From: a virus
Lineage: Duplodnaviria; Caudoviricetes
Virus record (IMG/VR): IMGVR_UViG_3300042558_004043
Length of the DNA: 64,000 bases
Reading direction: 5' to 3' (one strand)
Shown in pieces: positions 1,587 through 46,700 of the stretch. The notes under the pieces are model-generated. The model was not told the origin of the DNA, did no database searches, and was given only the letters and a program-made list of their open reading frames with translations. Every line of letters starts with the position of its first letter. Positions within the stretch are counted from its first letter, which is position 1. The translations under genes and the position numbers were made by a program.

Positions 1587-1610
1587 TATATTTGTAGAAG
1601 TTCTTTAAAA
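1587..1610 (+). promoter_or_regulatory. TAnnTTTG promoter followed by a boxA-like antitermination element
   Basis: TATATTTG 1587-1594, then AGTTCTTTAAAA 1599-1610, resembling rrn boxA GTTCTTTGAAAA. Confidence 0.6.
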
Positions 1611-1620
1611 ATATTTAAAA

Positions 1621-1744
1621 GGTGGGGTGGCAGACGAAAGTTAGATATATCCAAGTCAAACGTAGCTACGGTGTTTTTAAAACACGATGGATAAACGACA
1701 AGTAGAGCTTTAAGGGAATAAGTCGCTCTTATTCCTCCCCCACC
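1621..1744 (+). ncRNA. Unidentified structured RNA 1
   Basis: Closing stem GGTGGGG 1621-1627 / CCCCACC 1738-1744. Internal stems ATCCA/TGGAT and GGAATAAG/CTTATTCC. No credible ORF. Confidence 0.5.
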
Positions 1745-1747
1745 GAC

Positions 1748-1901
1748 CACATTATAGGTTGATTGGGGAATGATTATACCAATAGTTTGAGAGTGGATAC
1801 CGACTGGTATAATCGGAGTTGGCAGGTATTCACCTGAAGTAATGCCAATCGTAAAAGGGGTTGTCCACTCGACCATCTTCCCCTTACCTAAACTTAATGT
1901 G
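1748..1901 (+). ncRNA. Unidentified structured RNA 2 with predicted pseudoknot
   Basis: CACATTA/TAATGTG, TAGGT/ACCTA and GGGGAA/TTCCCC closing helices. GATTATACCA/TGGTATAATC hairpin whose loop (GAGTGGATACC) complements 1859-1870. Confidence 0.55.
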
Positions 1902-2077
1902 TTGTTCCCTTGAGAAAGGAAAGGAGTAGAGCTTAGTGACACTAGAGTCATCACTACAACACATAGGGTTTCTCACCCTAAAAATTCACAGAGTGGCGCA
2001 GGTTGATACTACTTCGCAAGTAGATTGATACAGAGTAAAAAGAGGTGGGGGAAACCACTCATTAACCCACCCAACAT

Positions 2078-2150
2078 AGTCAGGTGTACTTAACTGGTAA
2101 AGTACCTAACGCTTAATTAGGGAATACAGGTTCGATTCCTGTCCTGACTA
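2078..2150 (+). tRNA. Atypical tRNA-like element, nominal anticodon CTT (Lys)
   Basis: Acceptor AGTCAGG/CCTGACT+A; T-arm ACAGG-TTCGATT-CCTGT; anticodon arm CCTAA-CGCTTAA-TTAGG with G at position 33 and an irregular D/anticodon junction. Confidence 0.6.
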
Positions 2151-2248
2151 CAGAGGCTCGTCAAATGGGTGACGATTTATTAAATGAGGGGTGTAGATAC
2201 CTCAATGATACCGAGGTTTAATAAAGTAGTGACGTTAAATAACCCAAT

Positions 2249-2357
2249 AGTCAGGTGGCGGAATTGGCGCCAGTAGTTGTATCACGAGTTCAGTAATCCT
2301 CCCAATCGGACGTGAATCAAGGAGGTGACTATACAAGTTCGATTCTTGTCCTGACTA
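2249..2357 (+). tRNA. tRNA-like element with expanded anticodon domain (109 nt)
   Basis: Acceptor AGTCAGG/CCTGACT+A; D region TGGCGGAATTGG; T-arm ACAAG-TTCGATT-CTTGT. About 60 nt of branched sequence (CCTCC/GGAGG hairpin) replaces the anticodon arm. Confidence 0.6.
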
Positions 2358-2360
2358 CAA

Positions 2361-2562
2361 TGAGTAAGAGATACTCAGAGTCTTCGAATCAAGACTTAAA
2401 GAATGATTCCGCAGAATGTCTACGGCGCGAGTGGGACATCGTGGGATAAAGGGATAGACACATTCCCTCCCAGTAGTGTTGGATGTTTTTAACGGGTAAG
2501 ACCAGCAGGTTTTTAAGAAATAGAAAACCGATAAATCTACTCACCAATAATCTCAAGGTGGG
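2361..2562 (+). ncRNA. Unidentified structured RNA 3
   Basis: Hairpins TGAGTA/TACTCA, AGTCTT/AAGACT, TGGGA..GGGA/TTCCC TCCCA, GGTTTTT/AGAAAACC and a terminal CTCACC-AATAATCTCAA-GGTGGG. Flanked by tRNA-like elements. Confidence 0.55.
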
Positions 2563-2569
2563 GAAACAT

Positions 2570-2643
2570 AGTCGGATAGCTCAGGTGGTTAGAGTTGCAC
2601 GCTTATACCGTGATGGTCGTGGGTTCAACTCCCACTCCGACTA
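2570..2643 (+). tRNA. tRNA-Ile(TAT)
   Basis: Full cloverleaf: AGTCGGA/TCCGACT, GCTC/GAGT, GCACG-CTTATAC-CGTGA, GTGGG-TTCAACT-CCCAC. CCA is not encoded. Confidence 0.85.
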
Positions 2644-2710
2644 CAACTGAAAAACTATAGTTCATATCTAACTCGCGTTTTGTTCAAGATATTTACTATA
2701 AAACCTAACA

Positions 2711-3211
2711 ATGAAACACGTATTTTTTGTACTATGTACAATTTTGAGTATCAATGCCTTTTCACAAACTTTTAAAGACCCAGTATCTTTTAAGTCCGAT
2801 TTATGGCTTGTTCAAACTTTTGAGGAAGGCACATTCGTCGCTCCTGATACTATCTCAATAACTTGGGATATTAAAAAAGTTAGGCCAAATAAACATGCCA
2901 TATATGTTGACATCTCTAAAAAGGGAACATTGATTGGAATCAAATACCCAAATAAGGTTAAGTTAAGTTCTGAAGGATTACCCAATAATGGATTTATGGG
3001 TGAGAAGTGGTTCAGCAAATACTCAATGTATATTCAAAGTATGGTAAAGGATGAAGATGGATATATTTGGACAGTTACTGTTGGTAAAGATGCGTTTTCT
3101 GATGATTATACGGGATTAGAAAATGGTAGAATATATGTGGTCATACAAGACCCAAAACATATAAAACCAAGTTGGTATTTTACCATTAAAACCTTTGGGA
3201 GTAAAAAATAA
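2711..3211 (+). CDS. Exported hypothetical protein (Sec signal peptide, Gln at +1)
   Basis: MKHVFFVLCTILSINAFS-Q signal peptide; 166-aa ORF. Confidence 0.75.
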   Translation: MKHVFFVLCTILSINAFSQTFKDPVSFKSDLWLVQTFEEGTFVAPDTISITWDIKKVRPNKHAIYVDISKKGTLIGIKYPNKVKLSSEGLPNNGFMGEKWFSKYSMYIQSMVKDEDGYIWTVTVGKDAFSDDYTGLENGRIYVVIQDPKHIKPSWYFTIKTFGSKK

Positions 3212-3233
3212 ATTTAAGGTCGGGGATGGAGTT

Positions 3234-3266
3234 AAACCACACCAATAGGTGTGGTTTTTATTTTTT
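3234..3266 (+). terminator. Intrinsic terminator
   Basis: AAACCACACC-AATA-GGTGTGGTTT followed by a T-rich tail. Confidence 0.8.
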
Positions 3267-3342
3267 ATAAAAATATTTATCTTGAGTATGTTTGATATAT
3301 CTCAAATTATACATTATTATTTAACTCTAAAACTAAAATTCT

Positions 3343-4467
3343 ATGAAAAACCTAATTTTACTTCTCAGTTTATCTTTTTTAACGATAAATTTATTTTCAC
3401 AGTGTGAAAATGATTCCATTAATCCTTATTTTATCAACTTTGAACCTGAAGTTACCATTTCTTGTGATGTTGATTTGAGTGTTGTATTTCCTGTAGCACT
3501 TGATGAGTGTGATGATAGTGTTGAGATTGCTTGGTATGAAGAAGTTACGACCGGTATTTGTGAAAACAATTATGATGTTTTTAGAGTATATCGAGCTTTT
3601 GATAACTTTGGAAATCAATCAGTGGAGAGTCAAATAATTCACGTTGTTGATGAAACTTCGCCACTTTTTGTACCTTTGGTCAATCGTACAGTGGAATGTG
3701 GTGACTCAATTATATTCGATGACCCCCAAGTCACAGACAACTGTAGTGATTTTGTACTAACTTATTATAACATAATTCAAAATGTTGATAGTTGTTCTAC
3801 AATCTATACTAGGGTTTGGGAGGCCGTTGATTTTTGTGGAAATACTTCTATCTCGTCACAAACAATAACATCTATTGATATGACACCGCCGGTTATTACA
3901 GGTCCAATTTATTTGGAGGTTAATGAAGATGATAATATTGATACTTCGTTTGTAACTGTGACAGATAATTGTTCATCAATAAATTTAATTTATAGCGATT
4001 TAGAATATTCAGCAAATAACATTATAAGAAATTATACCGCAACTGACGCTTGTGGTAATGTGTCAACATTTGAACAAATTATTGGAATCAATATTGTTAT
4101 CCCACCTGGTGATGACGATGACGATGAAGATGAGGACGATGAAGATGAGGACGATGAAGATGAGGATGAAGATGAGGACGATGAAGATGAGGACGAAGAT
4201 GAGGACGATGAAGATGAGGATGAAGATGATGAAGATGACGATGATTGTCACAAAGTTGCGATTTGTCATGGAACGGGTAATGGTTCTTATCATACAATTT
4301 ATGTGAATCAAAATGCGGTTCAGGCACACCTAAATCACGGAGATTATCTTGGTCCTTGTACCGAAATGATAATTGATTGGCAAACTATTTTACCAAATAG
4401 TGATTTACAAATGAGAGTTATTAAGGGAAAAGATAATAAGTACAAAAAATTTGTGAGAGTTAGATAA
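3343..4467 (+). CDS. Exported protein with three HYR-like Cys-containing repeats, a 45-residue Asp/Glu tract and a C-terminal ICH..H..HGD..GPC motif
   Basis: Signal peptide MKNLILLLSLSFLTINLFS-Q. Repeats of the form A.D.C...I.R.(W/Y).A.D.CGN.S...Q.I.V.D...P. Confidence 0.75.
   Translation: MKNLILLLSLSFLTINLFSQCENDSINPYFINFEPEVTISCDVDLSVVFPVALDECDDSVEIAWYEEVTTGICENNYDVFRVYRAFDNFGNQSVESQIIHVVDETSPLFVPLVNRTVECGDSIIFDDPQVTDNCSDFVLTYYNIIQNVDSCSTIYTRVWEAVDFCGNTSISSQTITSIDMTPPVITGPIYLEVNEDDNIDTSFVTVTDNCSSINLIYSDLEYSANNIIRNYTATDACGNVSTFEQIIGINIVIPPGDDDDDEDEDDEDEDDEDEDEDEDDEDEDEDEDDEDEDEDDEDDDDCHKVAICHGTGNGSYHTIYVNQNAVQAHLNHGDYLGPCTEMIIDWQTILPNSDLQMRVIKGKDNKYKKFVRVR
4111..4245 (+). repeat. Coding microsatellite (GAT/GAC/GAA/GAG) encoding 45 consecutive D/E residues
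   Basis: Imperfect GATGAAGATGAGGAC units within 3343..4467. Confidence 0.95.
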
Positions 4468-4485
4468 AACACCTATCTTTGTACT

Positions 4486-4938
4486 ATGAAAAGAATTTAT
4501 TTGGATGACATTCGTACACCTCTATCTAACGATTGGATTGTTGTTAGAAATTACGACGATTTTGTTAATAAAGTAACTGAGATTGGTCTCGGTGAAATTG
4601 AAACAATCTCATTGGACCATGATTTGGGTGATACCGCAGTGAATGAGTATTTTGCAAATGTATCCCCAAACTACAAATTGGATTACGATAATATTAAGGA
4701 AAAAACCGGATATGATTGTACAAAATGGATTGTAGATTATTTTTATGAAATGAATCCTGATAGGATTGAGATGAGCCGTTCCAAAAAGGGTGCTAGTAGT
4801 ATTAAATTTCCTTTGGTAGTCGTACACTCGGCCAATCCTATCGGCTCGGCAAATATTATGGGGTATATTAATAATTTTTTGATGAATGAAAATAAACCTC
4901 AAACTTGTATTAGGGTTAATATTGACCATACGGTTTAA
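4486..4938 (+). CDS. Cyclic-phosphate-processing receiver (cREC)-like domain protein
   Basis: IYLDDIRTP, ISLDHDLG, TGYDC and VHSANPIG motifs. Own promoter TTTG-N20-TATCTTTG at 4450-4481. Confidence 0.75.
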   Translation: MKRIYLDDIRTPLSNDWIVVRNYDDFVNKVTEIGLGEIETISLDHDLGDTAVNEYFANVSPNYKLDYDNIKEKTGYDCTKWIVDYFYEMNPDRIEMSRSKKGASSIKFPLVVVHSANPIGSANIMGYINNFLMNENKPQTCIRVNIDHTV

Positions 4939-6069: not shown

Positions 6070-6343
6070 TTTGCTTGTCTGGTGAGTATTTATCCTTATA
6101 TTTGTAAAAGATTTGACACCTACAGGTGATGAAAGATACTCGGAAAGTTAAATCAAAAAAAAAATACAAATAAATTTGGTAGATTGAAAAAGTCACCATA
6201 TATTTGTAAAGGATTTGAGACGGACAACGATTAAGATACAAGTCTCGAATCTTAAAAAAAGTTTAAGAAAAATTTGACAGAACGAAAAATTTGACTTAAA
6301 TTTGTAAAACAATTCGGGAATGACCGAAGAAGTTCTTTGAAAA
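6070..6343 (+). promoter_or_regulatory. Three tandem Bacteroidota-type promoters plus a boxB-like hairpin and boxA
   Basis: -7 elements at 6097-6104, 6199-6206 and 6297-6304, each with (T)TTG 19-20 nt upstream. Hairpin TTCGG-GAATGA-CCGAA 6313-6328, then AGTTCTTTGAAAA 6331-6343. Confidence 0.75.
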
Positions 6344-6344
6344 G

Positions 6345-31644: not shown

Positions 31645-34600
31645 ATGGACCCTTTTATTTATTATTATGATTTCGAGGACTGTTTTCAACTTGACCTCTC
31701 AGGAAACCCATTAACCTATGTGGTAGGTTCAAATGAAGAATTGAGCTTAGACGCACCTTATTTAATCTACCCTATTGAAGAACCTAATAGTCGTAGTTGT
31801 GCGGTTTATATCACAGCATCAACATCAAGTGCTGCAACTCATTACACTGACGTTGCTTCAAAGTATGTTGATTGTGACTTATGTCTTTCTGCCAATACTC
31901 AAGTTGTTACGGTATCAGGTATTACAAAACCTGATTTAAGTAGTTTAAATTTGATTGCCGATAGTAGATTTAAAAAGGGAGATGTTTTAGGAGTAAACAT
32001 AGTTTATGACGATTCTGGAACTACTAAATTTATAAATTCTCCAGCAATTATAACTGAAACTTTTCCATATAAGTTTGGAAGTAAGGCTTGTGATTATTCA
32101 GTTTCTAATATTGAATACGTGGGTCCGTTTTACACATTTATAATTCATTTTAACCAACCTTTAAATACCAATATATACACCATTAATGTTGCGGCACCTA
32201 TGGGGTATTATCAAATTGTCACTAATACATATACCCTTAATTCCGAATCTGAGTCATTGAATATAGCACCAGGATATACTAGTATACCATTTAATGTTCC
32301 TTTACAGAATCCTGATACATGGGTACAAACCATAACTTTTAATGTAACATTTACATGTACTGATGGAACTACAACATTTAACGAAGTTACTTTTAATTTT
32401 CCGTGTAATTGTTATACTTTAAATAATAGCGGAGCCACGGCACAATCTGTGACTTATGTCAGTTGTGTAACTACTGAATTTTTTACAGAAACTTATCCTG
32501 TAAAAACTCTAAAATTTGTAGGTACCAAAAAAATATGTGCTAAAAGATTAATAAACGTTGGGTCAAATATTACATATGTAGATAATACCGAAACTGAAGG
32601 TGTGGTATGTTCTAATTTAACCGACCAACCATTTATAAATGAAGATATCAAATGTAGAAATTCTAGTTTATTTATTAGAAAAAGCATCAACTCAAGTATA
32701 CCAGTAAAAGTCAATTATTTACCATACGATTCGTTCCAACAAGTGGTTGAATCTAAAGGTGTCTATTATTTAGTTGAGGATTGTGTTAACGGTTCAACAA
32801 GTGTGATATTAAGTCACCAATATTTTGAGAAATATGGACAAATAATAAGTTTACCTACTGGAGAATCAAAATGTAAGAAAGTTTTAAACGCCGTAACCTC
32901 AGGTGATTATTCTGAAATATCAGGAGTTACTACAGAAATATTTAGTACAAAAGTTTTTGAAAACTGTTATGAGTGTTCAAATTATATAAATAATAGCGGT
33001 ATTGACGAAACATTTAAAGATAACTCATACACAACATCTCAAATTAATACGATTACTCAATTAAATGATGGGTCAATATTAGTTGGGGGAGACGGTTTAG
33101 TACAAGTGAATAATGGTTCTTTGTATAGTGCGGGAAACATTTTAAAAATGAGTCCTGAAGGTGAATTAGTTCTTAATTTTAATTCAAATAACGGAGGTAG
33201 TTTATCGTTATATAACGGTAATTACATTTATACAGACTTTAGCGAAGGGTTTAATTTTGATTCAGATTTCACTGTAGAATTTTGGCTAAATTATAGTAGT
33301 ACAAACTTAGAAAATCCTTCGATTATTTCTTTTTATGATTCATCAAATACCCAAGGGTGGGAATTATCATTTACAGGACTATGTCAACTTAATTTTACGT
33401 ATAACGAAAATGTAATTAATTTTGAAAGTCAGATTAATATATATCAATGGGTTCATATTGCAATAGTTAGAAATTCAGGAGATATTTTCCTATATGTTAA
33501 CGGAAAACAAGATTCAATTGTAACCACAGGTATTACAGATTCTATTACCGCAACAACAGGCACGTCATTCTACATTGGAACTAATTATGATAAGACAACT
33601 AATTTAGATGCCTATATTAGTAACCTTAGAATTTGTAAAATTGCAGTTTATACTGGTGAATTCACACCACAAACAACTCCCTTAACAATAACCCAATCAT
33701 CATATAGTAATGTGTCTTATTTACCAACAAGCGCAACCACGTTATTAATGAATTTTGAAAATTTATCATCAATACTATTTGATAACAGTATTTATTCTAA
33801 CGTTTTTTATTCATACAAACCAACAATTTCTTATTTAGCATTTTCACCGGTGAATAAAACCGACTTGAATGAAATTTATGACGGACAACCAACTAATAGT
33901 TTTGTTCAACTAGATTTACCTGAAGGGTTCACTTTGAATGCTTATGGTACAAAAATATCTACAGTTTATTTAGGAACAAATTCTTATTTAACATTTGAAC
34001 AAGGAAGTAATTCAGGAGATTTAATTTTACCTGAGGATATTCCTTCATCAATAAGTTCATCAGGTTTGTTTATCTCAACCGTTGGTGATGGACTTACTAC
34101 GGATAACGATACGTATATTAGAAAAATTTCAACCGGATATACCGAAAATGGGGAATCTTTAATTGTCCGTGTTGAGGGTGGTTATAAAAATTTCTTGGGT
34201 GGAGGTCAAGGTTTTTGTTGTAGATGTATTACCGTGACAAATCAATCACAAAATGTGAATTATTTAAATTACACAAAATGTGATAATTTATCAGAAGAAG
34301 TGACTATAACAGTATTACCGTCGAATGAATATACTTTTTGTGCGGTTTGGAGTGCTAATGAGTCTCCTGATTTACCTTCTAATCCATATTTTGCAGAACC
34401 ATTATCCTTCAGAGCTTACAGAAATGTTGCTCAAAATTTACAAATTGCACAACCTAATATATGGACAGATTTTACGTTTAATACGGAGAGTTTTGATTAC
34501 TATAATGGATATAATCCTACAACTGGAGTATATACCTCGCCAGGAAATGGTGATTATACGTTTAGAGCAAGATTTGTATTCGTGTCTCAACAGAACAATA

Positions 34601-37600
34601 ATTTCCTAACTGTGGGTCTTTTTGTTAATGGAGTATTATACGACTCATTTACTTATGGACCTTCAACCGCTTTAGTTAATTTTGAAACTGAAAGTATATT
34701 TGAAAACGTTCAATTAAATATTAATGATGCAGTAAGAATACGAGTTGCTAGAACTGTAAATGGTTCTACAACTGGAACATTTACAATATTGGCAGGAATC
34801 GATAGTTCTAATGGAAACAATTTATTTGAATTAACCAATGTTAACAGTGGTTTAAGTAACGAACTATCTCCAACAAGTGTAACAACAATAAGTGTAGATG
34901 GGTGGTGCGGAAAATTAACCGATGACTCCAATTCTCATTGGGTTTGTGGAGACGATTTCAGTTGGGTTGAGGGATGTTCCCCAATAGCGGTTTGTCAAGA
35001 AAATAACGTAGTTGCTAACCCACAATTTTTAGTTCAAGGAATACCGAATACAACCATACCTTCATGGGAGTCAGTTAATGGAGTCGGACAAACTTCAACA
35101 CTATGGCAGACAGTTGGTAATAATAGTACATTTGGCTCGGCCGCGCTATATACGGGAGGTGATTTAAATAATTATCTTCAACAAAACTGCTTGGTTATTG
35201 GGGCAACCTATGAAATTTCTTTTGACTTATCACTTCCTGTATTTTTTACCGATTTTGGTGGCACTTGTACTGTATTTCCTGGGCAAAGATGGGTTAGAGT
35301 TTTTGCAGGTTCTAATGGGTCTGAATTTTTTACTCCAACTAGTACATTTGGTTCCGGAGGATACCAAAGATTTACCACTACATTAGTAGCAACAAGTACA
35401 CTACTAAGATTTCAGGCACATGAAGATTGTGTTGCTAATATACCAATTTCTATTAGTAATATTTGTGCAATCCAAACCGAACCAGCCCCTGATTGTACTT
35501 GTTACGAAGTACGTCACACAAACGCAGGACTAAATCCTCCTCAGAGTACTTGGTTCTTATTTTCTTGGAGAGATTGTAGTGGTAGTCCACATAGTTCTTT
35601 TGTTGGCCAAAATCCTTTATTCCCTTGTATTCTAAATGATAATTTTAGTTTTGTTGACCAACCAGGGATAGGTACTAATGAACAATATGCTTATGTTGAG
35701 GATACCAATGAATTTTGCGGTCTTTCAAATTCTCAGTATTGTATTGAACCCACTGTTTTTCCTTGTACATGTTTTGAACTTAAAATAGGTAATAATCTAA
35801 CTGTCGAATTTTTAGATTGTGATGGTAATTATAGATTTATTACGAATAATTACGGTCCGTCGGTTACTGTTCAAGGAACTGTATGTATGACTTCTATCAT
35901 AAATACATCATCTCAAAGTAGTATTACAGACAGAGGTCCATGTACAGCAAATAACGCATATTGTTTAGCTCGTCTTTTACCTGACCCATTACCTCCGATT
36001 GAAGGTTGTATAGTAATGTTAAATTCATCTACAGACGAATTTGATATATTCTTATATGACACCAATCAAGGTAGTTTAATACCAATTTCACTACAAGGTC
36101 CATACATATTTAATAATGCGGATTCAAGTGGGGATACCTATACCGACATAGCAATTTCAAGAACATCTCAGAGAGTTTATTTCAAAACAAATGGTACCTA
36201 TCAAACAAATCAAGTTGGACCATATCCCGCCAGTTATATTGGGTATTTTACTATTAATTTCCAAACCGGAACTTACGTATCAGGGGCAACAATTAATGTA
36301 ACCCCTGATTTACCTTTCCAAGACCCGTATGATTTTTTTACGGTTAACCATGGATTAGAAGTTGATTTGGACGGATTCCATGTTTTTGTAAGCTCAATGA
36401 ACTATTCTGAACTTGATGATGTACAATCAATTCTAAGATGTGAAATTATTGACTCTGGTCAGGATACTATCCTTACCCAAGTATGTCCTTGTGAGAGATT
36501 ATTTGATTTATTACCAGGAAGAAGAGTTCAAGGGGATATGTGTAGAACTACTGATAATAAATTATTTATTACAACAACAGATGGTGAACGTGTATTCATT
36601 GAACAATGGCATACCGATGGAACACCTGAGGGGTCTCTTTTCGAGTTTGAAATTGTAACAGGTTTAAGCGCCGACGGAGATAATCAAATAGATTTATATA
36701 TATTAGACGGTTCGTTATTTTGTATAGATAATAATCAATTTAATATACCTGTTTATAAAGTAATTAGTGATTATCCTTATGGATTAGAGCCGGTTGATAG
36801 TATAACTAATCTTACCAATTATGCTACATATGGTGGATTATTTAACGGAGCTGCCACATTCCCTGAGTGTAATTCATTTAGTTTTATTTATCCTGACCCA
36901 AGATGTAGACCATTACTTTTATTTTCAGGGTTAAGTAATACCTTTTTTGTATCCAGATTCAACTTCTTACCATTCCAACCTATAAGCACTTTAAATTTAG
37001 GAACTCACCCCGTACCTACTGTAGGACCCAATGAAATTGCCCATACATTTGACTATGAAACAAATACAGGTTTATTATGGATTCTATTTAACACACAATC
37101 ATCAATTTGGGTAACAACAATATGGGAATTTACTTTAAACGGTACAACATTACCTAATGGTGAAATAGATTTTATTGGTACTTATAACAGACAAATTACT
37201 TTGACGCAGACCAATCAAGCAATTACGAGTCTTCGTTTCTTTGCCGGATTAGCGGCAATTGATGATAATACTTTAATAATTGGTACCCGCAATGGATATG
37301 GGACAAGTAGCGCAGCTCTTAGGTCCAGAATTGTACAACTTAATTTAACACCTGGTAATGTGAATTTGAATTTAACTTTTAACGCAAATACAACTACTAT
37401 GTTTACATTACCTACAGCAGGGTCTCCAGGGTACACTTTACCGAGAAATGCAATTATTCAATCAATGGATTATGCTGTAGATAATAAATTAATTGTAATT
37501 GTGAGAAGTGGATTACCTGAAAGCAGTAATATAAATTTAACAAGAGTCATTTTACAATACCCATACGCAATAGATGCACAATATGAATATATCAATACTA

Positions 37601-40600
37601 TATTAGACGCCGAAGGAAATGGCAACGCCACTAGTGATAATGTACAACAAATTGGAGTTGTTAACTATAATAATTTTATTTTTGTACATAGAAATCAGAA
37701 TATTGGGGCTAACCAGAATTGGGGCGGTTATATACTCAATAATGAGCCAAACTATGGTATTTCTGGTTATTTGGACATACCTCAAACTCAATATACTTTA
37801 TCACCACTTTTTAATACTGCTTTAAGAGCGTCCTCAACAATTAATGTAACTGTACCTAGCCAAATTCAATGTGAATTAACTAGATTTGTACCAAATATAG
37901 CGCCGGTCATTCCTACTTTAAGTAATTGCCCTGTATTTTTGAATTCTTCAGGATTGGAGGGTCTTTGGAATTATAACGTCACAAATAATACACATAACTT
38001 TATTTTATTACCTCAGCTTGGAGATGTTGCGGAAACTATCTATAGCTATAGAGATGTTGCGGTTTGTAATACTAATAATAGATTATATGTTTTACAAACA
38101 TTAAGTGATTTACCTCAACCCAATCCATCATCTCCATGGGACAATAATTTAATATGGTGGAATGTTGATTTTGAGACCGGACAGTTAATTGATGGTCCGT
38201 TCCTAATACAACTACCTTCACCAGTAACATTTGGAGCTCTTAGACTTAGCGAAGGATTAGAAGTTAGCCCTAACGGTAATTTAATATACCTATCTACAGT
38301 TCCAATCCCCGGAGAACCTCAAACTCCAAGAGTACTAATTTACGATGTTTTCAACACTAGCCAATTCAACTACTATACAGAATTGATAAGCTTTACAAAT
38401 GGAAGAAGAGTTAAAGGTGATTTTATAAGAACTAATAATGATAAATTATTTATTTCAACAACTGACGGAACAACTATATACATAGAACAATGGACTTGTG
38501 ACGATAGTCCAGAGGGCACTATTTTTGACAATGAAATTGAATTTGGTCCTGATGTTTATGAATCTTTGGATATTTTCTTAAGTTTAAATGAAGGAGTTAG
38601 TGAATTTTATGTAGTTGCTAGTCAAAATAGTACATCTTCAGTTTTTAAAATTGATGTTGATTTAACAATAACTCAATCGTGGAATAACACTAATTTACAA
38701 ACAATTAATGGGGCGGCATCTTATCCATCATGTCACTCATTTGAATTTGAATTCCCTGACCCAAGATGTAGACCGTTAATATTATTTTCAGGTAATAATC
38801 AATTTGTCGCAATTAGATGGGATGGAGAAACAGAGGACCCGCAACAAGTTTTAGACTTAGGAAATACATATCCGGCACCTGGAAATTCTGTACAGAGAAG
38901 TATGTCAATTACTCACATTTTTGATTTCAATTTTAACACAGGTTGGATGTGGATTAGTCGTAGACCAACCCCCGCAATTACTAATGTTAATTTTCAAATA
39001 TACGAATGGAGTATTGATGATGAAGATTTTAATTTAACTTTTAATAGAGTAATTAACGTTTCTGCATCAGGTACTACTTTTAGACACAACCTTGGAATTG
39101 CTTCATTAGACAGAAATACCTTGATAATTGAAACTTGGTCAGGTGGTACTGGCCCCTATAATAATCAGCAGAATTACCGTGAGTTTATTGGTCAGTTGGA
39201 TATTACTCCGGCATTAGGTAATAACTTATCTTTGGTGAATAATATGACATTAATGTTCAGATTACCGGCACAAGGAGATTCGATATATACCGGAACACGC
39301 TCAACTGTTATTTATAGTAATTTTTATTTAGGTCCTGATAATAAATTAGTAATATTTGCTAGAGATTCTACCAATTTGTCTCAGACGGGTATAAAATATC
39401 TTTTACAATATGAGTACGTCCAAAGTACAAATCCTAACTTTTTTGCATTCCCTGAAGTATATTTCCCATATCCTGACCCTCAGAATCCGGGAAATGGTGT
39501 TACAAATTTTATTGCAACATTCTTAGACGAAATAAGGTCAATAAGATTAACAAATAATGCTCCTGGTTTTGGAAATGCTTTCAGTCAACTTTTATTTAGT
39601 CCAACTAATTACCTTGTCACTGGCTCAAATATTGATGAATTTTGGACTCCCCCAAACGGACGAGGACCTTTTGGAGCGTCTTCAATAAACTCAAGTCCTG
39701 AAGCGATAGCCTTGTGTAATCCATTAACTTTTACACCAAATTTAATAGTAACAACTATATTACCTACTTGTCCTGTGTTTTTTGTCACAAGAGCCGATAA
39801 TAATGATTTAAATCCTAACAGGGTTTTTTATTATAATGTTAATGATAATGAGTCAATTGAAATTGAGTTACCAAATATACCTACTATTACAAATGATAGA
39901 TTTTGGGATATTGCCTATAATTCAGTAAGTCAAAGACTTTATTTATTACATGGTAGTAATCAAACAACTGATGTAAGATTAACATGGTGGAATGTTGATT
40001 TCATATCAGGATTTGTTATAACTCCAAACCCAACCTCAGTAACTCTACAAAATCCAGAACCACTTGTTAATGGAAACCCTGGACTATTTGCTGCGGCATT
40101 AGGGGTAAGTGAGGACGGACTCAATGTGTTTTTATCAACCAGACCTTCAAATTCTAACACATGGTCTATTAGAAGATTTGATACTGTGAGTCAGCAATTC
40201 ATAACTCCGGCTATTTTGACTTTACCCGTCGATGAAAGCCCAACGGATATTGCGGTTGTAAATAATAATAGAATGTTGATTGGTTATGGTGTAACTAATC
40301 CTACTAGATGGATGATTAAACAAATTTATTTGGATGGTAGTTTTACTAACGCGGTGATTGAAGAAACTGTGACTATTTTTAATTTTCCTGAGTCAACCGA
40401 TTACGGTAGTGGAATTGATTTATTTTTAACCGACCAAAATAGATTGTACATTGCCGCGTCATATGCAAGTAATTCATCAAATGTGTCTGACATTTATGAA
40501 GTTGACATATATGGTAATACCACATCGGTTTATTCCGACACTGGTTTGGGTAGAGTGTCAGGTGCGGCCAGCTCTCCATCCTGTTCATCTTTCTCATTCC

Positions 40601-43600
40601 AATCACTGTGTAATCCTTTGATGTTATGGTTGGCGCCTACTAGTCAAACACATAGATTAAGAGTATCAAGATACGCATTAGGTCTTGGAGAACCTACTTT
40701 CTTAAATTTAGGTACTAGTTACAATCCTAATATTTTAGGATTAGGCTCTTTAGTTGAAACATTAGATATTGCACATTCATTTGATTTTATAACAAATACC
40801 GGATTTTTATGGATTAAGAAAGTCGCCAACACTAATGTTACGTATATAAATGAATGGACAATTAATGATGAATACTATAATTTAACTTGGAGTAGATTAA
40901 TCACACTTAATACTTCAAATAATAACGGAGTGATTTCAAGAATTGACCAAGGTATGGCGTATATCTCTCCAAACACACTTGCCATGGGAGCAATAGTAGG
41001 TGGAGGATGGGCCGGTTGTCCAACAGCGTCTTGTAGAGGGGTTATTTTACAAGTTAATATTACAAATAATAGCATTACGTTTACTAACTGTACTGTGATG
41101 TTTAATCTTCCGGTTGTTGGAAGTGTGAATTACAATGGAACTACTAACTTACTTGTTTGGTCAGGTATGTATTTTATGGATAATAGCCTGATTATCACCG
41201 CAAAATACGGTAGTACTTTAGTCTCAGCGTCACCAATGTATATTTTAGAATATCCATATGTGATTGGGGCTACACCATCGTTGATTCAAGAAATAGGTCC
41301 TAATTATACCCAACCCGCAGTTTCGCACTTCCCAATGACAATGGAAAATGGTGTTTATTTGATTAGAAATGAAAACACTAACTGGTCTGTATTTGAATAT
41401 GAAACTTCGTTCCCAAATGGTGTTTCTTCTGTCTACCAAGGATTAACATTCAATGGAGTTACTGGACCTCACGGAGTTTCTTCAATAAATTCAACCGCCG
41501 AATCTTTACAACTATGCGAACCTATAGCTTTAACTACTGATTTGTGTGAAGAATGTGGTTTTTATTTTGACATAATTGAAACCGGTAACATAGGTTACAT
41601 AGTAGCCGGCAACTTATTGTCGACATGTCAGGGTAATATTTCAGATTATGTTATTAATTGGTACGGACCAAATAGTACAACAGAAATTGCGTTTACCAGC
41701 GGTTTAGGAAATCAATTTATTTATGATTATCCTCATCCATTAACAGGTGAACAATCTCCAATTGTATTATCAGGGGAATATTTACCTGTGATTGATAGAA
41801 TCAACTTAGGTGGTGTTATTTATTCACAAGATGGGTCAAATGGTAGTATTGCCACAAACTTGTCTTGTTTTGAATCAATTGAAGTTACATGTGCTGATTG
41901 TTTAAATGGAAATTCTGATGACCCTATTTATTCATATGAATTTTCATTCGATGGTGCGATTGTAGGAACTCAAACACCACCGTTCCAAACTTGTTTGTCT
42001 CTACCATCTACAGTTAATCATATTGCTTGGGCATTCACAGGATTTGCGGCTTATGATAATATTAAGATTATATATAATGGAAATAACTACACACAACCAG
42101 TTATTTTAGCCAATTTTAACATAGGTAGTACCCTGATTCCAATGGGAACAATGTGGACAAATTACGAAATAGACGTTGCCGCCCCATCTTTTAGTAAAGT
42201 CACGTCATTAACTGGTTTATTAAGAAGTCCAGGGTTTGAAAATATTATTTTCCAAATTACCTCCCCATCAGGTGCGAGCAATTGGATTTTAAAATATGAT
42301 TGTATGGAAACATTTGATTGTGAAAATTGTCCTCAAAATCAGGAAATTGAAAACAAGTATAAAATTGATTCAAGTAGTATAAGTACAACCTCATATGATG
42401 GTAATAATCAACCTATAGATTTTTCAGCATCTTGTTATAGTAAAGTTGTTTTGGGTATAAAAGTGTGTGATGAAGACTGTTCTACAGTATCAATACCTCA
42501 GACACTTTTCAATTATTATCCATATGCGTTTTCGCCTTACACGGGTCCTAAAGGTTATGCGTTATGTAATTTTCCACCAAATGACACAGTTTTATTTGGA
42601 GGTAATGAACAATTAACTTTAGATGGTTTAAAAACCATACAATTAAATCCTGGAAATCAACCATATAATTGTCTTTCATTATCTCAAACTAGCACAATAT
42701 CTTATAACAAATATGTTGACGGTGATTATTGGATTATCGAGGTCACCTCAAACTCCAATATTCCAATCGATTATATGTACCAATCATACTTAAATGCGAT
42801 GAATGAAATCTCATATTGCGGATATATGGATTGTAATCAAGATTTTCCAGGTGTTGTTGGGCAGACTTGTCCATTTAGTGGAGGAACGTCAATCAATGGT
42901 ATACCATCATATTCTGACCCAACAGATTATAGATATTATAGAAGTATTGAATTTGGTATTCCTACCGCATCAGGTAATACTTTATGTGGGGAAATTCTTG
43001 GGGGAGATACTGGAGGTTCAACAGGTACTGTTGGCAATACTACCGACACGGCTTTAAAATTCCAAATCCACGTTTCAGCTGTAGTAACTACAGGAACAAT
43101 GGATGGTTTAGAGTTTTATTTAAAAATTGAGAACTATGGATTTTTAGAATCAAATACATTCACTTGTTCTACTTCACCTAATTTTGGTATTAATATCATT
43201 AATTTTATAAATAATTCATATTACAGTGACGATGTTCAATTTACTTCACAAACAGGAGCAATATTTGAATCACCATTCACTACCTCAAGACGTGTTTATC
43301 TAACGTCATGTAATCCACGGGTTTCTTATAATATAGCAGGTTTGTTTGATACTAATTTAATCAGTAATGCCACATTGCCATTCTATTCTCAAAATGAAAG
43401 TTTACCTGAATTTTCTTCAACAACTTGCACTAATTTTGTAGGAATGTTTAATACGTATTTCCCCAATATAGTTGATTACTATATGTATAAATATAGACTT
43501 GAGATTATAGATAGTAACACAGTAGATTTTAACATTTACGCTTATCCTATAGTTAATGGTATATGGCAAAACACACCAATTTTGATTCTTACCTACGTAA

Positions 43601-43762: not shown

Positions 43763-46700
43763 ATGGAAAGTCAAAATTATAATCCTCCTTTGGGATTTGT
43801 GTTAACCCCGTTTCCAACAAATACACCTACACCAAGTAACACTCCAACCCCAACTAAAACGCCTAGCAGCGGGTTCGTTAATCCAACACCAACTAATAGT
43901 CCTACAAATACTAAAACTCCAACTAATACTAAAACCCCTACTAAAACTTCTGGAATTACTCCAACAAATACTCCAACTAGAACAAACCGCCCTGCAGAAG
44001 AATTGGCCGAAGTAACAGTAGGACCAAACGGGTTCCAAGGACCAACAATTTATGTAAAAAACTTAACAAAAAATACCATTTATATATATGATGGTTCAAA
44101 TGGTTGGACTGGATTAAACGTTAAAATAGGACAAACTAAAACCTTTCCATTAATAGAGTTTACAACTGGTATTATAAGAATTGACACCAATGCTGACTCA
44201 TATCAAAGTTATGAAAGCACATGTTATAATATAAATTACAGACAAGGTGATAAATCAAATACATCATTTTTAGGAGATTACGTTTATTTTGAAAAAGTTA
44301 ATTGTAATGAAGAGTTACCACAAGTTGTACTTAATAATACTTGTTTTTGTAATTCAGAAAAATGCGGAGTTGAACAAAATATAAATCAATCGGTAATTTC
44401 TTATACAACAATACAGTTATGTGAACAAAAAGAAAACACACCAAAAGGATTAGTTTATTTGGATACGGAAATTGACCCATCATTAGGTTTTCCGGTTACT
44501 TTTGACGTTTATTATAGCTCATTGTATCCTAACTCTCCTGATTTTACTTTCACATTAGATGATACCGATACGAGAATGTCAGATTTAGGAAGCTCTATTG
44601 ATAATTCTATTTATTTGGACGGTACCGGTCCTAAGTTCATTTTTGTTGTAATAACGGCCGAAAATGGAGGTAAGTGGTCAACATCAGTATCTTGTGCCGA
44701 TGATACTTCACCTTTAATATATAGTTACGAATTTTATTTGAATAACCCGAATAAATTTGTTTTAAATATTGAGTCTAATCCTTTCACAGGAACTGTTAAT
44801 AGACTTGGCGGTATAAGTGATGGAACTTCATCATATACTGAAACTTTTTTAACTAATACGGAAAGTTCAGTCATATTTGATTTTGCAAATATTAATAAAA
44901 ATAACACTCAATTTAAAAATTCACCAATAATAAATAAAAATGGTTTCACTAAAGATTTATTAGTTTCTGGAGCTTCTGTAAATACCATTGTTGAATTTGG
45001 TGATAGTATTTTGGTAGGTGGAGATTTTAATTATTATAATGATAGAATGGTTTGTCCATTAGTTAAACTAGACAAAAACGGAATCCAAGATTTAACTTTT
45101 TCAGATAATTTATATATAAGCGGAGAGGTTAAAACTATTTTATCCACAGATAAAGATTCGATATTTGTTGGTGGTGATTTAAAATCAAGCACATGCGATA
45201 GACACATTTTGTTTGTAGAACATGAAAATGTCATATATAACACTATACCAGGAGTGGTGTTACCAGGAGACCCGGCTGAAAAAAGATTCAATATAGTATC
45301 TTATAATATTTTAACCAATACGGCTAGAGTTATATTCGAAAGCGAAAATAATTTGCAAGCAGCGGTGGGTGAACAGGCGGTTGATATTGCACATACTTTT
45401 AATTATAATACAAATACAGGTAAGATTTGGATACTTTACAAATCGCCAGGAACTGGAACACATGCTAAAACAATATATGAGTATAACATTTTAAATTCTA
45501 ACTACGATGTTTCAGAATTAGTAAGAACTATAACCATAGCCGAGCCTGAAGAGTTCGTAGGTTTAGGAAGAGGATTGGCAGTATTTGATAGCGAAAATTT
45601 GATATCAACATTATTTAACAGTTTCTATGATATTTCTTTTGTAAAAATTCCTATAAATAGCGTCGGAAATGTAACGGTAAATCCAATTCCAATAGAGGGT
45701 ATAAATCCCGATATATTTTCTAATTACCCCGCAAACCCAAGATTTTACTCTGACGTATTAGTTACAGATAATAATACTATAGTTTACGCCTTTTCGGAGA
45801 GAGAGTCTTTAGGACAAAGCGCATATACAACTATTTATGAAATTGATATTGTAAGTGGGGGTGTAGTATTTTCAGCAACAACACCTGTGCAATATATAGA
45901 TGATGGAGGTATTGACATTAGGTTAGAAGTTGGAGGGTTGTTTTCTTTTCAAAATTATTGGTATCTTACATTTACGCGTCATCCAAACGATTTTTATGAC
46001 TCACCATCTAACAATGAGTTTATATTTAAAATTAATGACCCTAATATAGGATTTATTCCATTTGTTTATAATATACAATCAGCCAATCAATCAAACATAA
46101 CTCATCATCCCCAAAGAACATTTGTCGGGGCATCATCTTTGAAGGATTGTAATATCTTTTCGTATTTAGTTCGACCTCCTGAACCTTGCCAGTGTTATAA
46201 ATTCTATAATAGCGGAAGTACGGCTCAAGGTATGACATATGTTGATTGTGCATCAACAACTAAAAAAATTAAATTTAAAGGAACCAAAAAATTATGCGTT
46301 CAAAATGTATTATCTTTAGGAACAAATATTTCTCAAACTTTACTTGGTAATTGTGTTAATGGAAAATGTCCAATAACTCAAACACCATCAGATAACATTG
46401 TAAAAATAAATAGTTTAGGGCAAATAGATAATAAGTTCTTTAAAAATTCAGGTGAAGGATTTAACGGACCTGTAAATATAATAAAAAAATATATAAATAA
46501 TACTATTATAATTGGTGGTAATTTCTCTCAATATAATGGTCAAACAGCTAGAGGTATCATTATATTAAATACCGATGGTACAATATATGACAATTTTGAA
46601 GGAGGGTTTAATTTATCAGGTCTGACGCCAAATGTTACTGGTATTGAAATATTATTAGATAATTCATTAATAGTTATTGGAGGAGGAGATAATCTAAGTT

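Follow-up and report, generated by a model that had tools for sequence, protein, structure and literature searches.

A chain of structured RNA modules and tRNA-shaped elements in the tRNA island of an uncultivated freshwater jumbo phage

Main finding and layout of the locus

In an uncultivated jumbo phage from freshwater, a gene-free stretch of about 1 kb (positions 1587–2643) consists of independent modules strung together and not of a single RNA. The analysed window is a 64,000-nucleotide stretch of DNA (Caudoviricetes; IMG/VR record IMGVR_UViG_3300042558_004043), and the features of the locus are collected in Table 1. At least three of the modules, the widespread A2 and C and the smaller A3, apparently represent undescribed phage RNA families that are absent from Rfam and located between tRNA genes, in the manner of the stable RNAs of phages T4 and T5. 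We consider it probable, if far from certain, that the whole stretch is an operon of stable RNAs belonging to a phage tRNA island, with tRNA-shaped parts that host enzymes would process.

The initial annotation had noted the absence of a credible ORF in this region. This holds, as all plus-strand ORFs within 1584–2710 encode 55 aa or fewer. An antisense ORF of 153 aa (1493–1954) was considered and rejected; it overlaps the upstream gene and cannot be reconciled with the indels seen in the A2 family. Given this lack of ORF capacity, and since length differences in the A2 family are not multiples of three, the stretch is regarded as non-coding. GOLLD, tRNA-Met, and tmRNA are found near the locus, as well as a cREC_REC (cyclic-phosphate-processing) gene at 4486–4938, about 2 kb from the RNA stretch.

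The possibility had been left that all segments would turn out to be known RNA families. A search of positions 1400–2800 against Rfam 15, at the gathering score and with E values up to 10, gave no match besides the tRNA-shaped elements and chance-level ones, so that A1 to A4, B, and C are without an Rfam 15 match. In 27 related loci, no Rfam match covers a copy of A2 or C. Chance-level matches aside, tRNA, tmRNA, GOLLD, and one weak, cut-off group I intron make up the Rfam matches of the window stretch and these 27 loci taken together. A blastn search of the whole stretch against 50,697 GenBank phage records returned zero matches. There is no YrlA match in 1400–2800 that would indicate a YrlA-type Y RNA, and neither this record nor any of four complete relatives has its Ro60/TROVE partner (PF05731), for which the control genomes were positive.

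Table 1. Coordinates of the modules, tRNA-shaped elements, and transcription signals
Feature	Position	Strand	Description
Promoter -7 box	1587–1594	+	TAtaTTTG, Bacteroidetes type; TATATTTG
boxA-like word	1597–1611	+	GAAGTTCTTTAAAAA; putative site
A1	1621–1744	+	Multi-hairpin RNA; closing 7-bp stem GGUGGGG/CCCCACC
A2	1755–1890	+	Three-way junction RNA with pseudoknot; widespread unnamed family
A3	1898–1980	+	Small three-way junction, then 5-bp hairpin with 7-nt loop
A4	1987–2072	+	Two hairpins, pseudoknot possible
tK	2078–2150	+	Pseudo-tRNA of the AGUCAGG scaffold family; Lys-CUU-like loop with G33
Spacer B	2152–2248	+	Terminator-like hairpin at 2158–2175
tX	2249–2357	+	109-nt tRNA-like RNA; arm of about 60 nt replaces the anticodon arm
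C	2358–2569	+	Pseudoknotted RNA of about 210 nt; widespread unnamed family
tRNA-Ile(UAU)	2570–2643	+	Canonical tRNA
Intrinsic terminator	3235–3266	+	GC-containing stem then T run, 3′ of gene 2711–3211

Transcription signals

The stretch was proposed to open with a host-type promoter and a boxA-like element; both are present and conserved in relatives. The -7 box fits the Bacteroidetes consensus TAnnTTTG, and the word that follows resembles the boxA of rrn operons. In two relatives lacking A1 (L089 and L086), the same -7 box and following word lie directly 5′ of an A2 homologue. A near-identical word, GAAGTTCTTTGAAAA, is found at 6328–6342, in the leader of the window's GOLLD. Within the window, the promoter-plus-word pattern with up to two mismatches does not occur above chance. 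The interval 2644–2711 shows no terminator, and the intrinsic terminator 3′ of the next gene is probably the end of the transcription unit.

The A2 and C families

Module C is part of a widespread family: more than 118 IMG/VR contigs carry its 5′ hairpin word. Compensatory changes affect 16 of 45 pairs in nine sequences. Over 62 sequences, each of the H2 pairs shows 10–20 double changes, and the covariation score is 0.213 compared with 0.126 in shuffles (reached by 0 of 500). The core motif of A2 is likewise present in more than 118 IMG/VR contigs. Its fold pairs 89.4% of cells in 34 sequences, versus 40–52% when the partners are slid, with compensatory changes in 8 of the 10 pairs of hairpin Ha and in 8 of the 12 pairs of pseudoknot K1. 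The covariation score is 0.288 against 0.140 in shuffles, and here too none of 500 shuffles reached it. An alternative A2 pseudoknot, pairing the Ha loop with the P2 loop, was discarded in favor of K1 (72.6% paired, a single covarying pair). All of these counts come from MAFFT alignments, whose quality is low across the variable middle of C, and not from covariance models. On this comparative evidence, both A2 and C are real pseudoknotted folds and covariation-supported families. Invariant unpaired nucleotides are found in each.

C occupies a fixed place relative to tRNA-shaped elements. It starts right past the 3′ end of such an element, tRNA or tRNA-like, in 65 of 76 copies, from dozens of phages, including just past the tRNA end in the 35 ARAGORN-called cases, and it ends 5–8 nt upstream of the next such element in 66 of 79. 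About 85% of its copies are enclosed, at fixed distances, by tRNAs or tRNA-like elements. The invariant word in its 3′ loop, UAAUCUCA, is the conserved loop of GOLLD's last hairpin, and a search with the C profile did not match the GOLLD region of the window.

The placement of A2 is looser. It follows a tRNA or tRNA-like element in 30 of 89 copies and precedes one in 41 of 88; where it is adjacent to a tRNA, it starts 1–4 nt past the tRNA 3′ end. About half of the copies adjoin no tRNA, as in this window, where A2 sits between A1 and A3, and some lie 10–30 nt upstream of an ORF. Two further placements were tried and rejected. As the leader of one gene family, A2 would be followed by related genes, and the largest cluster among 17 downstream ORFs has two members; as a promoter-proximal element it is not enriched (3 of 88 copies versus a background of 3.4%). 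Profiles of A2 and C find no second copy of either in the window, and the A2 profile gives no link to A4. Among 185,579 species genomes of cellular organisms, the A2 core has two matches, both in small MAG contigs. Literature on the A2 core words yielded unrelated papers only, and A2 or C may be among the unnamed candidates of a phage RNA survey comprising 10,006 of them.

Modules A1, A3, and A4 and spacer B

Compensatory changes also uphold the structure first seen in 1621–1744, 1991–2071, and 2361–2562. The segment 1748–1980 is structured as well, but it is not the single unit originally described, A2 and A3 being separate modules. A1 has a folding z of -2.0 relative to shuffles and three compensatory pairs in five sequences, and its homologues are limited to close relatives with at least 88% identity. 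Homologues of A3 reach down to about 65% identity; the closing stem is conserved in them, and the inner hairpin varies with compensatory changes. A4 has a narrow distribution but is found in every close relative, including those without A1; one compensatory pair was counted and a second was seen by eye, with a folding z of only -1.05. As there is no tRNA-like element between neighbors from A1 to A4, punctuation cannot separate these modules.

Spacer B is a different case. The segment 2151–2248 had been listed among the structured RNAs, a description that its z of 0.06 against shuffles does not support, and no homologue was found among about 210 related loci. Its only feature is the terminator-like hairpin right 3′ of tK, at which transcription may be partly stopped.

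tRNA-shaped elements and the scaffold family

Three tRNA-shaped elements with a common acceptor stem had been recognized, and this is confirmed: tK and tX have AGTCAGG/CCTGACT, and tRNA-Ile has AGTCGGA/TCCGACT. tRNA-Ile(UAU) is called by ARAGORN, scores 60.7 bits with RF00005 (cut-off 29), has the loop CUUAUAC with U33, and is 95–96% identical among relatives. The anticodon arms of the other two were both described as defective. This is accurate for tX, a cloverleaf fold in which a long interrupted arm stands in place of the 5-bp anticodon stem and 7-nt loop, and which is not called as a tRNA by ARAGORN or Rfam. In tK, by contrast, the arm is intact, with a 5-bp stem and a 7-nt loop (CGCUUAA), and the defect is G33, which is kept in the relative L078. 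ARAGORN calls tK as tRNA-Lys(ctt), and its 36.7 bits with RF00005 are above the gathering score, yet it lacks the U33 of decoding tRNAs, a residue present in 98.3% of 1301 phage tRNAs. The best explanation of these features is that tK and tX are non-decoding tRNA-shaped RNAs.

Both elements belong to a scaffold family of 184 unique elements of 67–145 nt, 150 of which are not called by ARAGORN. Their acceptor and T arm are constant, most have a tRNA-Leu-type D arm, and the middle varies in length and sequence; the 5′ and 3′ parts of tX match this family. U33 is absent in 16 of the 31 ARAGORN-called scaffold members, compared with 6 of 1270 other tRNAs. Changes on both strands leave the acceptor pairing intact, as in AGTCAGG/CCTGACT compared with AGTCGGA/TCCGACT and in L090, where AGTCAGA faces TTCTGACT. 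Stretches of 25–28 nt in the 3′ half are 92–100% identical across different elements from divergent phages. The middles are no more stable than shuffles (mean z = -0.38), which is consistent with pure processing signals and speaks against a functional insert. A constant acceptor and T arm around a freely varying middle is the pattern expected if these parts were kept for recognition by RNase P and RNase Z, a reading that is supported at the level of the family. Among 1418 phage tRNAs from these loci, 64% have U at -1, the trailer is N73-CAA or N73-CUA, and CCA is not encoded; the flanks of tK, tX, and tRNA-Ile are the same.

Cassette exchange and RNA-library contigs

Relatives sharing 97% identity differ in whether they carry A1 and A3, with A3 appearing as an indel, and the tRNA-like element is replaced among them. 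Module swaps among relatives coincide exactly with the tRNA-like boundaries. Complete relatives without A2 or C exist, hence no module is essential.

Four RNA libraries, from four studies, yielded contigs that cover and bridge 1586–1892, 1629–1983, 1987–2308, and 2349–2529, and tX is present in them. In some, 1892 runs directly into 1987, as in the form that lacks A3, and in three runs the partner switches exactly at 2248; variant junctions fall exactly at 2074/2077, 2152, 2248, and 2568. RNA libraries can contain DNA, and contigs cannot reveal RNA ends. Contig cover is almost nil over the flanking genes (1000–1586 and 2644–3400) and depth is highest in the bin with the 5′ half of tX, neither being a gauge of expression level or of RNA ends.

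A proposed maturation route and its alternatives

In the reading that we favor, transcription from the host-type promoter through the boxA-like leader would give a single precursor comprising the cassette-like RNAs A1, A2, A3, A4, and C, the non-decoding tK and tX, and the real tRNA-Ile(UAU). The tRNA-shaped parts retain the features that processing enzymes read (acceptor stem, T arm, GG in the D loop, mostly U at -1, and a CCA-less trailer), and on this basis host RNase P would cut their 5′ ends, and RNase Z or exonucleases their 3′ ends. These cuts would turn C, which is bracketed on both sides, into a separate RNA, and likewise the A block, tK, tX, and the tRNA. That RNase P and RNase Z cut here, that the products are stable, and that they have a function is inferred. 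The view that the pseudo-tRNAs act as processing signals gains from family-level placement, swaps at the boundaries, and the kept acceptor and T arm. The broader proposal, that such punctuation releases the full set of non-coding RNAs, fares less well, with A1 to A4 not separated by tRNA-like elements, B unsupported as a structured RNA, and one of the three marks being an ordinary tRNA-Ile. Our best guess is that the modules would be accessory RNAs acting on host translation or tRNA-conflict machinery, because they are single-copy, dispensable, and different among close relatives, and because the island carries tmRNA, GOLLD, and the cREC gene.

Other readings assign different roles to the same features. 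A2 and/or C could be new self-cleaving ribozymes that trim the adjoining tRNA ends, in which case the released RNAs would have no role of their own. Both families start 1–4 nt past tRNA 3′ ends, both combine pseudoknots with invariant unpaired nucleotides, the cREC gene is 2 kb away, and theta ribozymes are found within about 5 nt of phage tRNAs (PMC10879173). We nevertheless regard this as unlikely: no Rfam ribozyme family was matched at E up to 10, the H1/H2 pseudoknot of C has no hairpin (P3) between its strands and hence, by our reasoning, is not the nested HDV fold, and half or so of the A2 copies have no tRNA beside them, including the one here, flanked by A1 and A3. We have slightly greater doubts about the acceptor/T-arm halves being DNA-level recombination sites that shuffle cassettes between co-infecting phages, with the pseudo-tRNAs as decaying copies devoid of RNA function. 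The near-identity of the 25–28-nt stretches across divergent phages, the exact position of the variant junctions, and middles no more structured than shuffles would all suit such sites, whereas acceptor pairing maintained on both strands, retention of the 5′ strand along with the 3′ half (mostly with the tRNA-Leu-type D arm too), and the occurrence of tX in RNA-library contigs speak for an RNA.

It is very improbable that the stretch is a cis-acting leader, namely a riboswitch or antitermination RNA, for gene 2711–3211. The boxA-like word, the lack of a terminator upstream of 2711, and the A2 copies shortly 5′ of an ORF are compatible with this, but the 17 ORFs downstream of A2 are mutually unrelated, A2 is near promoters no more often than background, and C lies nearly always between tRNAs. 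Least tenable, being largely refuted by module-wise presence and absence, is that 1621–2072 forms one large ornate RNA of the GOLLD/ROOL kind. The minimum-energy fold does pair 1621–1627 with the 3′ end of the block (z = -2.4), GOLLD is in the same window, and C ends with the loop word of GOLLD's last hairpin. Against this, A1 and A3 are independently gained or lost in relatives, A2 occurs alone in other phages, GOLLD and ROOL are unmatched at E up to 10, and the C profile misses the GOLLD region.

Significance

Stable RNAs have long been known from the tRNA clusters of T4 and T5. To these, the locus contributes at least the two well-supported families A2 and C, the smaller A3, and many non-decoding tRNA-shaped scaffolds that form one large family; all come from jumbo phages of freshwater that are uncultivated. 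The fixed tRNA spacing gives a concrete and testable model of maturation, and the alignments from this analysis are ready material for RNA family models. Cassette turnover, together with the neighboring RNA-repair, tmRNA, and GOLLD genes, points to a role in a contest over the host translation apparatus. A bolder and improbable extension is that the AGUCAGG scaffold RNAs, A2, and C would be a host-aimed toolkit of tRNA-processed RNAs, serving as nuclease decoys or inhibitors or constituting a class of tRNA-end ribozymes. In the decoy form, tRNA-targeting defence nucleases would be the target, with presentation on a natural 'tRNA scaffold'; in the ribozyme form, A2 or C would represent a new class, self-cleaving or acting in trans, that works on tRNA ends. 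If either were true, A2 and C would count as functional RNA classes new to science, their members in freshwater phages numbering in the hundreds.

Relation to known systems

In mitochondrial tRNA punctuation and in engineered tRNA scaffolds for RNA expression, cutting by RNase P and RNase Z at tRNA shapes sets the ends of neighboring RNAs. Mitochondrial punctuation frees mRNAs and rRNAs, whereas small structured non-coding RNAs would be freed here by the cutting proposed above. RNAC and RNAD of phage T4 lie in its tRNA cluster and mature together with the tRNAs. These small phage RNAs (species 1 and 2 RNAs) still have no known function (PMC9697503), and no homology with them was found in the search of the stretch against the 50,697 phage records.

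The locus was put forward as a candidate for a new system, which it is not in kind, as the tRNA cluster of phage T5 is already annotated with tRNA-like and other stable RNAs. The T5 record (AY543070.1) lists RNA1 and RNA2 as tRNA-like stable RNAs, and RNAI, RNAIV, and RNA2H as stable RNAs of unknown function; RNA3 is also among the stable RNAs of this cluster. T5 is the closest precedent, with non-coding RNAs among tRNA genes as here. Its RNA1 and RNA2 are tRNA bodies with an expanded middle, like tX and the scaffold family, and RNA1 has the tRNA-Leu-type D arm GGAAUUGGUAGAC common to that family. However, no module has significant sequence similarity to the T5 RNAs and, unlike in T5, one acceptor/T-arm sequence is common to many scaffold elements and pseudoknotted families are present, which are known only from uncultivated phages, most of them from freshwater.

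The HDV-like theta ribozymes of gut phages, for which trimming of tRNA ends in phage tRNA arrays was proposed (Kienbeck et al. 2024, PMC10879173), resemble A2 and C as small structured RNAs adjoining tRNA ends. They are minimal HDV folds, however, whereas A2 and C have no HDV-type Rfam match and no nested double pseudoknot. Finally, GOLLD and ROOL are structured phage RNAs of unknown function that are frequently close to tRNA islands (PMC12286853), and they illustrate that such islands can hide remarkable RNAs. They measure 600–800 nt, compared with 85–210 nt for the modules here, and no similarity was found with covariance models or profiles. The GOLLD of this window (RF02032), 4 kb from the RNA stretch, has the same boxA-like leader.

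A conserved non-coding operon built of modules

The locus at 1587–2643 is a real, conserved non-coding operon, and most likely an operon of stable RNAs within a phage tRNA island. As the initial annotation had stated, it lacks any credible ORF: from the upstream gene's stop (1583) to the following gene (2711), no plus-strand ORF exceeds 55 aa. The promoter and boxA-like start that it had described were also recovered, as a candidate -7 box, TATATTTG, and a boxA-like word, GAAGTTCTTTAAAAA; we take the former to fit the Bacteroidetes -7 consensus and the latter the rrn-type boxA. The pair is kept in close relatives, and in two related phage loci, L089 and L086, it directly precedes a different first module. 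A near-identical boxA-like word, GAAGTTCTTTGAAAA, lies at 6328–6342 in the leader of the GOLLD RNA, behind TAnnTTTG boxes (6070–7303 region).

Features of the locus and its neighbourhood (window coordinates)
Feature	Position	Strand	Remark
Candidate Bacteroidetes -7 box	1587–1594		seen in sequence
boxA-like word	1597–1611		seen in sequence
A1	1621–1744		module
A2	1755–1890		module
A3	1898–1980		module
A4	1987–2072		module
tK	2078–2150		pseudo-tRNA
B	2152–2248		spacer
tX	2249–2357		tRNA-like
C	2358–2569		module
tRNA-Ile(UAU)	2570–2643		canonical
cREC_REC gene	4486–4938		cyclic-phosphate-processing receiver domain; PF20274, E = 1.7e-19
GOLLD	6789–7182		Rfam, 321 bits; model spans conserved 3' part
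tRNA-Met	7200–7272		directly after GOLLD
Terminator	~7281–7305		after tRNA-Met
tmRNA, phage-encoded	7821–8198	minus	Rfam, 93 bits

An alignment of six relatives showed that blocks are gained and lost as whole units. A1 is missing from L089 and L086, A3 is missing from L091, L092 and L002, which are otherwise 97–98% identical, and A4 is found in all six. The tRNA-shaped element 3' of A4 varies, being Lys-like in the window, an 81-nt non-tRNA in L091 and L092, and a tRNA-Glu in L002. Since A1 and A3 come and go as units, the hairpin-dense segment 1748–1980, initially taken as one, divides into A2 and A3. Across the present record and four complete relatives, no genome carries more than one copy of A2 or of C, and scaffold elements, which share a constant acceptor and T arm around a variable middle, occur one to five times; some complete genomes lack A2, C or both. 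Low copy number and absence from some genomes thus mark the modules as accessory cassettes.

Among five close relatives, A1 has three compensatory pairs. Homologues of A3 reach down to ~65% identity. Their closing stem and CCUUGAGAAAGG hairpin are conserved and their inner hairpin is variable, and a further hairpin trails. For A4, whose distribution is narrow, one compensatory pair was counted and a second seen by eye. Spacer B, which begins with a terminator-like hairpin, is no more stable in its fold than shuffles are (z = 0.06) and has no homologue among related loci; it is not counted as a structured RNA, contrary to the first reading.

Both the stretch and cassette variants of it turn up in RNA libraries. 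Each of six metatranscriptomes, freshwater or riverine, contains 30–39% of the sampled words of the stretch; contigs of four of these, from as many studies, cover and bridge 1586–1892, 1629–1983, 1987–2308 and 2349–2529, a presence that says nothing on abundance, RNA ends or transcription. It is at the borders of modules that the variants break: the contigs join 1892 to 1987 in three runs, which is the form without A3, and their change to dissimilar sequence falls precisely at 2074/2077, 2152, 2248 (three runs) and 2568.

Modules A2 and C

A2 and C are well-supported RNA families for which no earlier description was found. The core of A2 (CCAATCGTAAAAG and TGTCCAC, with four free bases between them) was found in more than 118 IMG/VR contigs, a lower bound. 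It is nearly absent from 185,579 species genomes, where it has 2 matches, both on small MAG contigs. Between 86 and 91 distinct copies share AGGUUGAUUGG at the 5' end, followed by a variable middle, the core, CCAUCU and CUUUCCU, and they form a stem, AAAG-NNNN/NNNN-CUUU, whose free positions covary. The structure, tested on 34 copies of the window's subtype, has five parts: a closing stem, P0; an invariant stem, P1 (GAUUGG/CCAAUC); a hairpin, Ha (8/10 pairs compensatory); a pseudoknot, K1, of the Ha loop with a downstream strand (8/12 compensatory); and a stem, P2. It pairs 89.4% of cells, against 40–52% with slid partners, and its covariation score is 0.288 versus 0.140 in shuffles, none of 500 reaching that value. 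An alternative pseudoknot of the Ha loop with the P2 loop was weak. No Rfam family matches A2 of the window or its copies in 15 other loci.

The 5' word of C, ATGAGTAAGAGATACTCA, is found in more than 118 IMG/VR contigs. Copies measure ~205–265 nt and close at the 3' end with an invariant AAUCUCA loop and GGUGGGG. In nine homologues, compensatory changes affect 16 of 45 pairs. Across 62 copies, the 5' part holds an H-type pseudoknot of helices H1 and H2, with 10–20 sequences changed on both sides at every pair of H2, and the covariation score is 0.213, against 0.126 in shuffles (none of 500 got that high) and no more than 0.150 for slid partners. Because MAFFT misaligns the variable middle, scores of the inner helices are poor. 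For both modules, the covariation across relatives that the initial annotation had proposed to look for is present. The locus shows no sequence similarity to GOLLD, but one link is striking: the 3' loop of C, UAAUCUCA, invariant in the 62 copies, equals the conserved loop of the last GOLLD hairpin in the Rfam consensus. The two loops (2548–2555 and 7171–7178) lie ~15–22 nt before a tRNA. By itself the octamer is not rare (8 in the window versus 4.3 expected). In the GOLLD structure, loop L27, which we take to be this last-hairpin loop, organises seven regions.

In the related loci L121, L139, L153 and L157, A2 stands in tandem, a short-middle copy being followed 7–8 nt on by a copy starting GGGTTGATTGGGG. 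The same conserved ~60 nt, ending in GGCGACTTAGAAAAATTGTGGGTAGTTTGTTTCAATATT, precede many short-middle copies (L094, L121, L139–L141, L144, L153, L157, L167 and L175) and may be the 3' end of another unnamed RNA module. L157 also has a tmRNA ~470 nt upstream.

tRNA-shaped elements

ARAGORN and Rfam both called a tRNA-Lys(ctt) at 2078–2150/2151 (36.7 bits) and a tRNA-Ile(tat) at 2570–2643/2644 (60.7 bits), and called nothing at tX. The shared acceptor stem was seen in all three elements. Of the two anticodon arms described as defective, that of tX is long and interrupted in a predicted cloverleaf, whereas tK, with a CGCUUAA loop carrying G33, is nevertheless called a tRNA. Its 3' half (T arm and acceptor strand) is repeated several times per locus in many relatives. 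Searching for AGTC[AG]GG, a T arm and CTG[AG]CT yielded a scaffold family of 184 distinct elements of 67–145 nt, 150 of which ARAGORN does not call tRNAs. Their commonest D arm is of the tRNA-Leu type, UGGCGGAAUUGGUAGACGC, and their middles, which differ in both length and sequence, are no more stably folded than shuffles (mean z = -0.38).

Of 1301 distinct tRNAs that ARAGORN called and whose anticodon was checked, 98.3% have U33, and the exceptions are concentrated in the scaffold family (16 of 31 members, versus 6 of 1270 other tRNAs). As tK is among these exceptions and its G33 is kept in the homologue at L078, it is in all likelihood a scaffold element that does not decode, despite the call by two programs. 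Both tK and tX are members of this large family of apparently non-decoding tRNA-shaped RNAs.

The 81-nt element replacing tK (L091:4557–4637, L092:5070–5150) holds a stem-loop, GGAUU-GGUUCCA-AAUCC, with a Glu-like UUC loop and again G at position 33. Two 94-nt scaffold elements (L040:10003–10096, L058:3–96), called tRNA-Pro(tgg) by ARAGORN, contain a second, internal T-arm-like hairpin, GGTCGGTTCGAGTCCGA. A candidate role of tX as a Y RNA was dropped: a Ro60 gene was looked for in this record and four complete relatives, and none is present.

Placement between tRNAs and possible maturation

A tRNA or tRNA-like element lies just upstream of C in 65 of 76 assessable copies (35 ARAGORN-called, which with one exception end 1 nt ahead of the motif, and 30 with a T-arm signature) and just downstream in 66 of 79, the 44 called ones starting 5–8 nt past the module. 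For A2, such neighbours are found upstream in 30 of 89 copies, mostly 1–4 nt away, and downstream in 41 of 88, 4–7 nt away; other copies adjoin different modules or ORFs. Among 1418 distinct tRNAs of these phages, U is at -1 in 64%, trailers are N73-CAA or N73-CUA, and none has an encoded CCA; the three elements of the window carry the same flanks. In L091 (4812–5859), a stretch with a 149-aa ORF replaces C between tX and tRNA-Ile.

A plausible model, drawn from these arrangements, is that real and pseudo tRNA-shaped elements would supply the sites at which RNase P and RNase Z cut, and that the structured RNAs between them would be freed as separate molecules. This processing-signal idea of the initial annotation is partly supported: it agrees with the synteny, with the flanks and with how the pseudo-tRNAs are conserved, but A1 to A4 have no punctuation between them, and B is of no interest as an RNA. 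New self-cleaving ribozymes trimming the tRNA ends would be an alternative to such cleavage.

Other alternatives bear on what the locus is. A single giant RNA would agree with a minimum-energy fold of the 5' half that pairs 1621–1627 with the 3' end of that half, but block-wise presence and absence led us to reject it there. If the locus consisted of DNA-level recombination sites with decaying tRNA copies, the tRNA-shaped elements would be remnants; their acceptor pairing is preserved through changes on both strands, indicating that selection acts on RNA. A cis leader of the downstream gene was also considered. The ORFs adjoining A2 copies, when compared, are unrelated to one another and A2 is not enriched behind promoters, which argues against a riboswitch or leader role of A2.

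Known systems and genomic neighbourhood

As a stable-RNA operon, the locus represents a kind of arrangement already known. In GenBank, the phage T5 record lists RNA1 and RNA2 ('tRNA-like stable RNA with unknown functions') among tRNA genes, and likewise RNA3, RNAI, RNAIV and RNA2H. T5 RNA1 shares a tRNA-Leu-type D arm and an expanded middle with the scaffold elements, but T5 and the locus have no sequence similarity. RNAC and RNAD of T4 are likewise unexplained RNAs, and GOLLD and ROOL are 'often near tRNA islands'.

The neighbourhood is itself an RNA island (see table). The cREC_REC gene, of a family tied to RNA repair, sits between the two ncRNA operons. The IMG/VR record containing the window is 108 kb long, with an estimated completeness of 37%; complete genomes of relatives with the same flanking genes measure 309–322 kb, and near-identical DNA is present in lake-water metagenomes of many studies. 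The upstream 110-aa protein (1251–1583), which is without a Pfam match, has ~395 relatives in IMG/VR, and its gene is a handy marker of the phage group. Two giant plus-strand ORFs of 3998 and 2668 aa lie back to back at 31645–43641 and 43763–51769.
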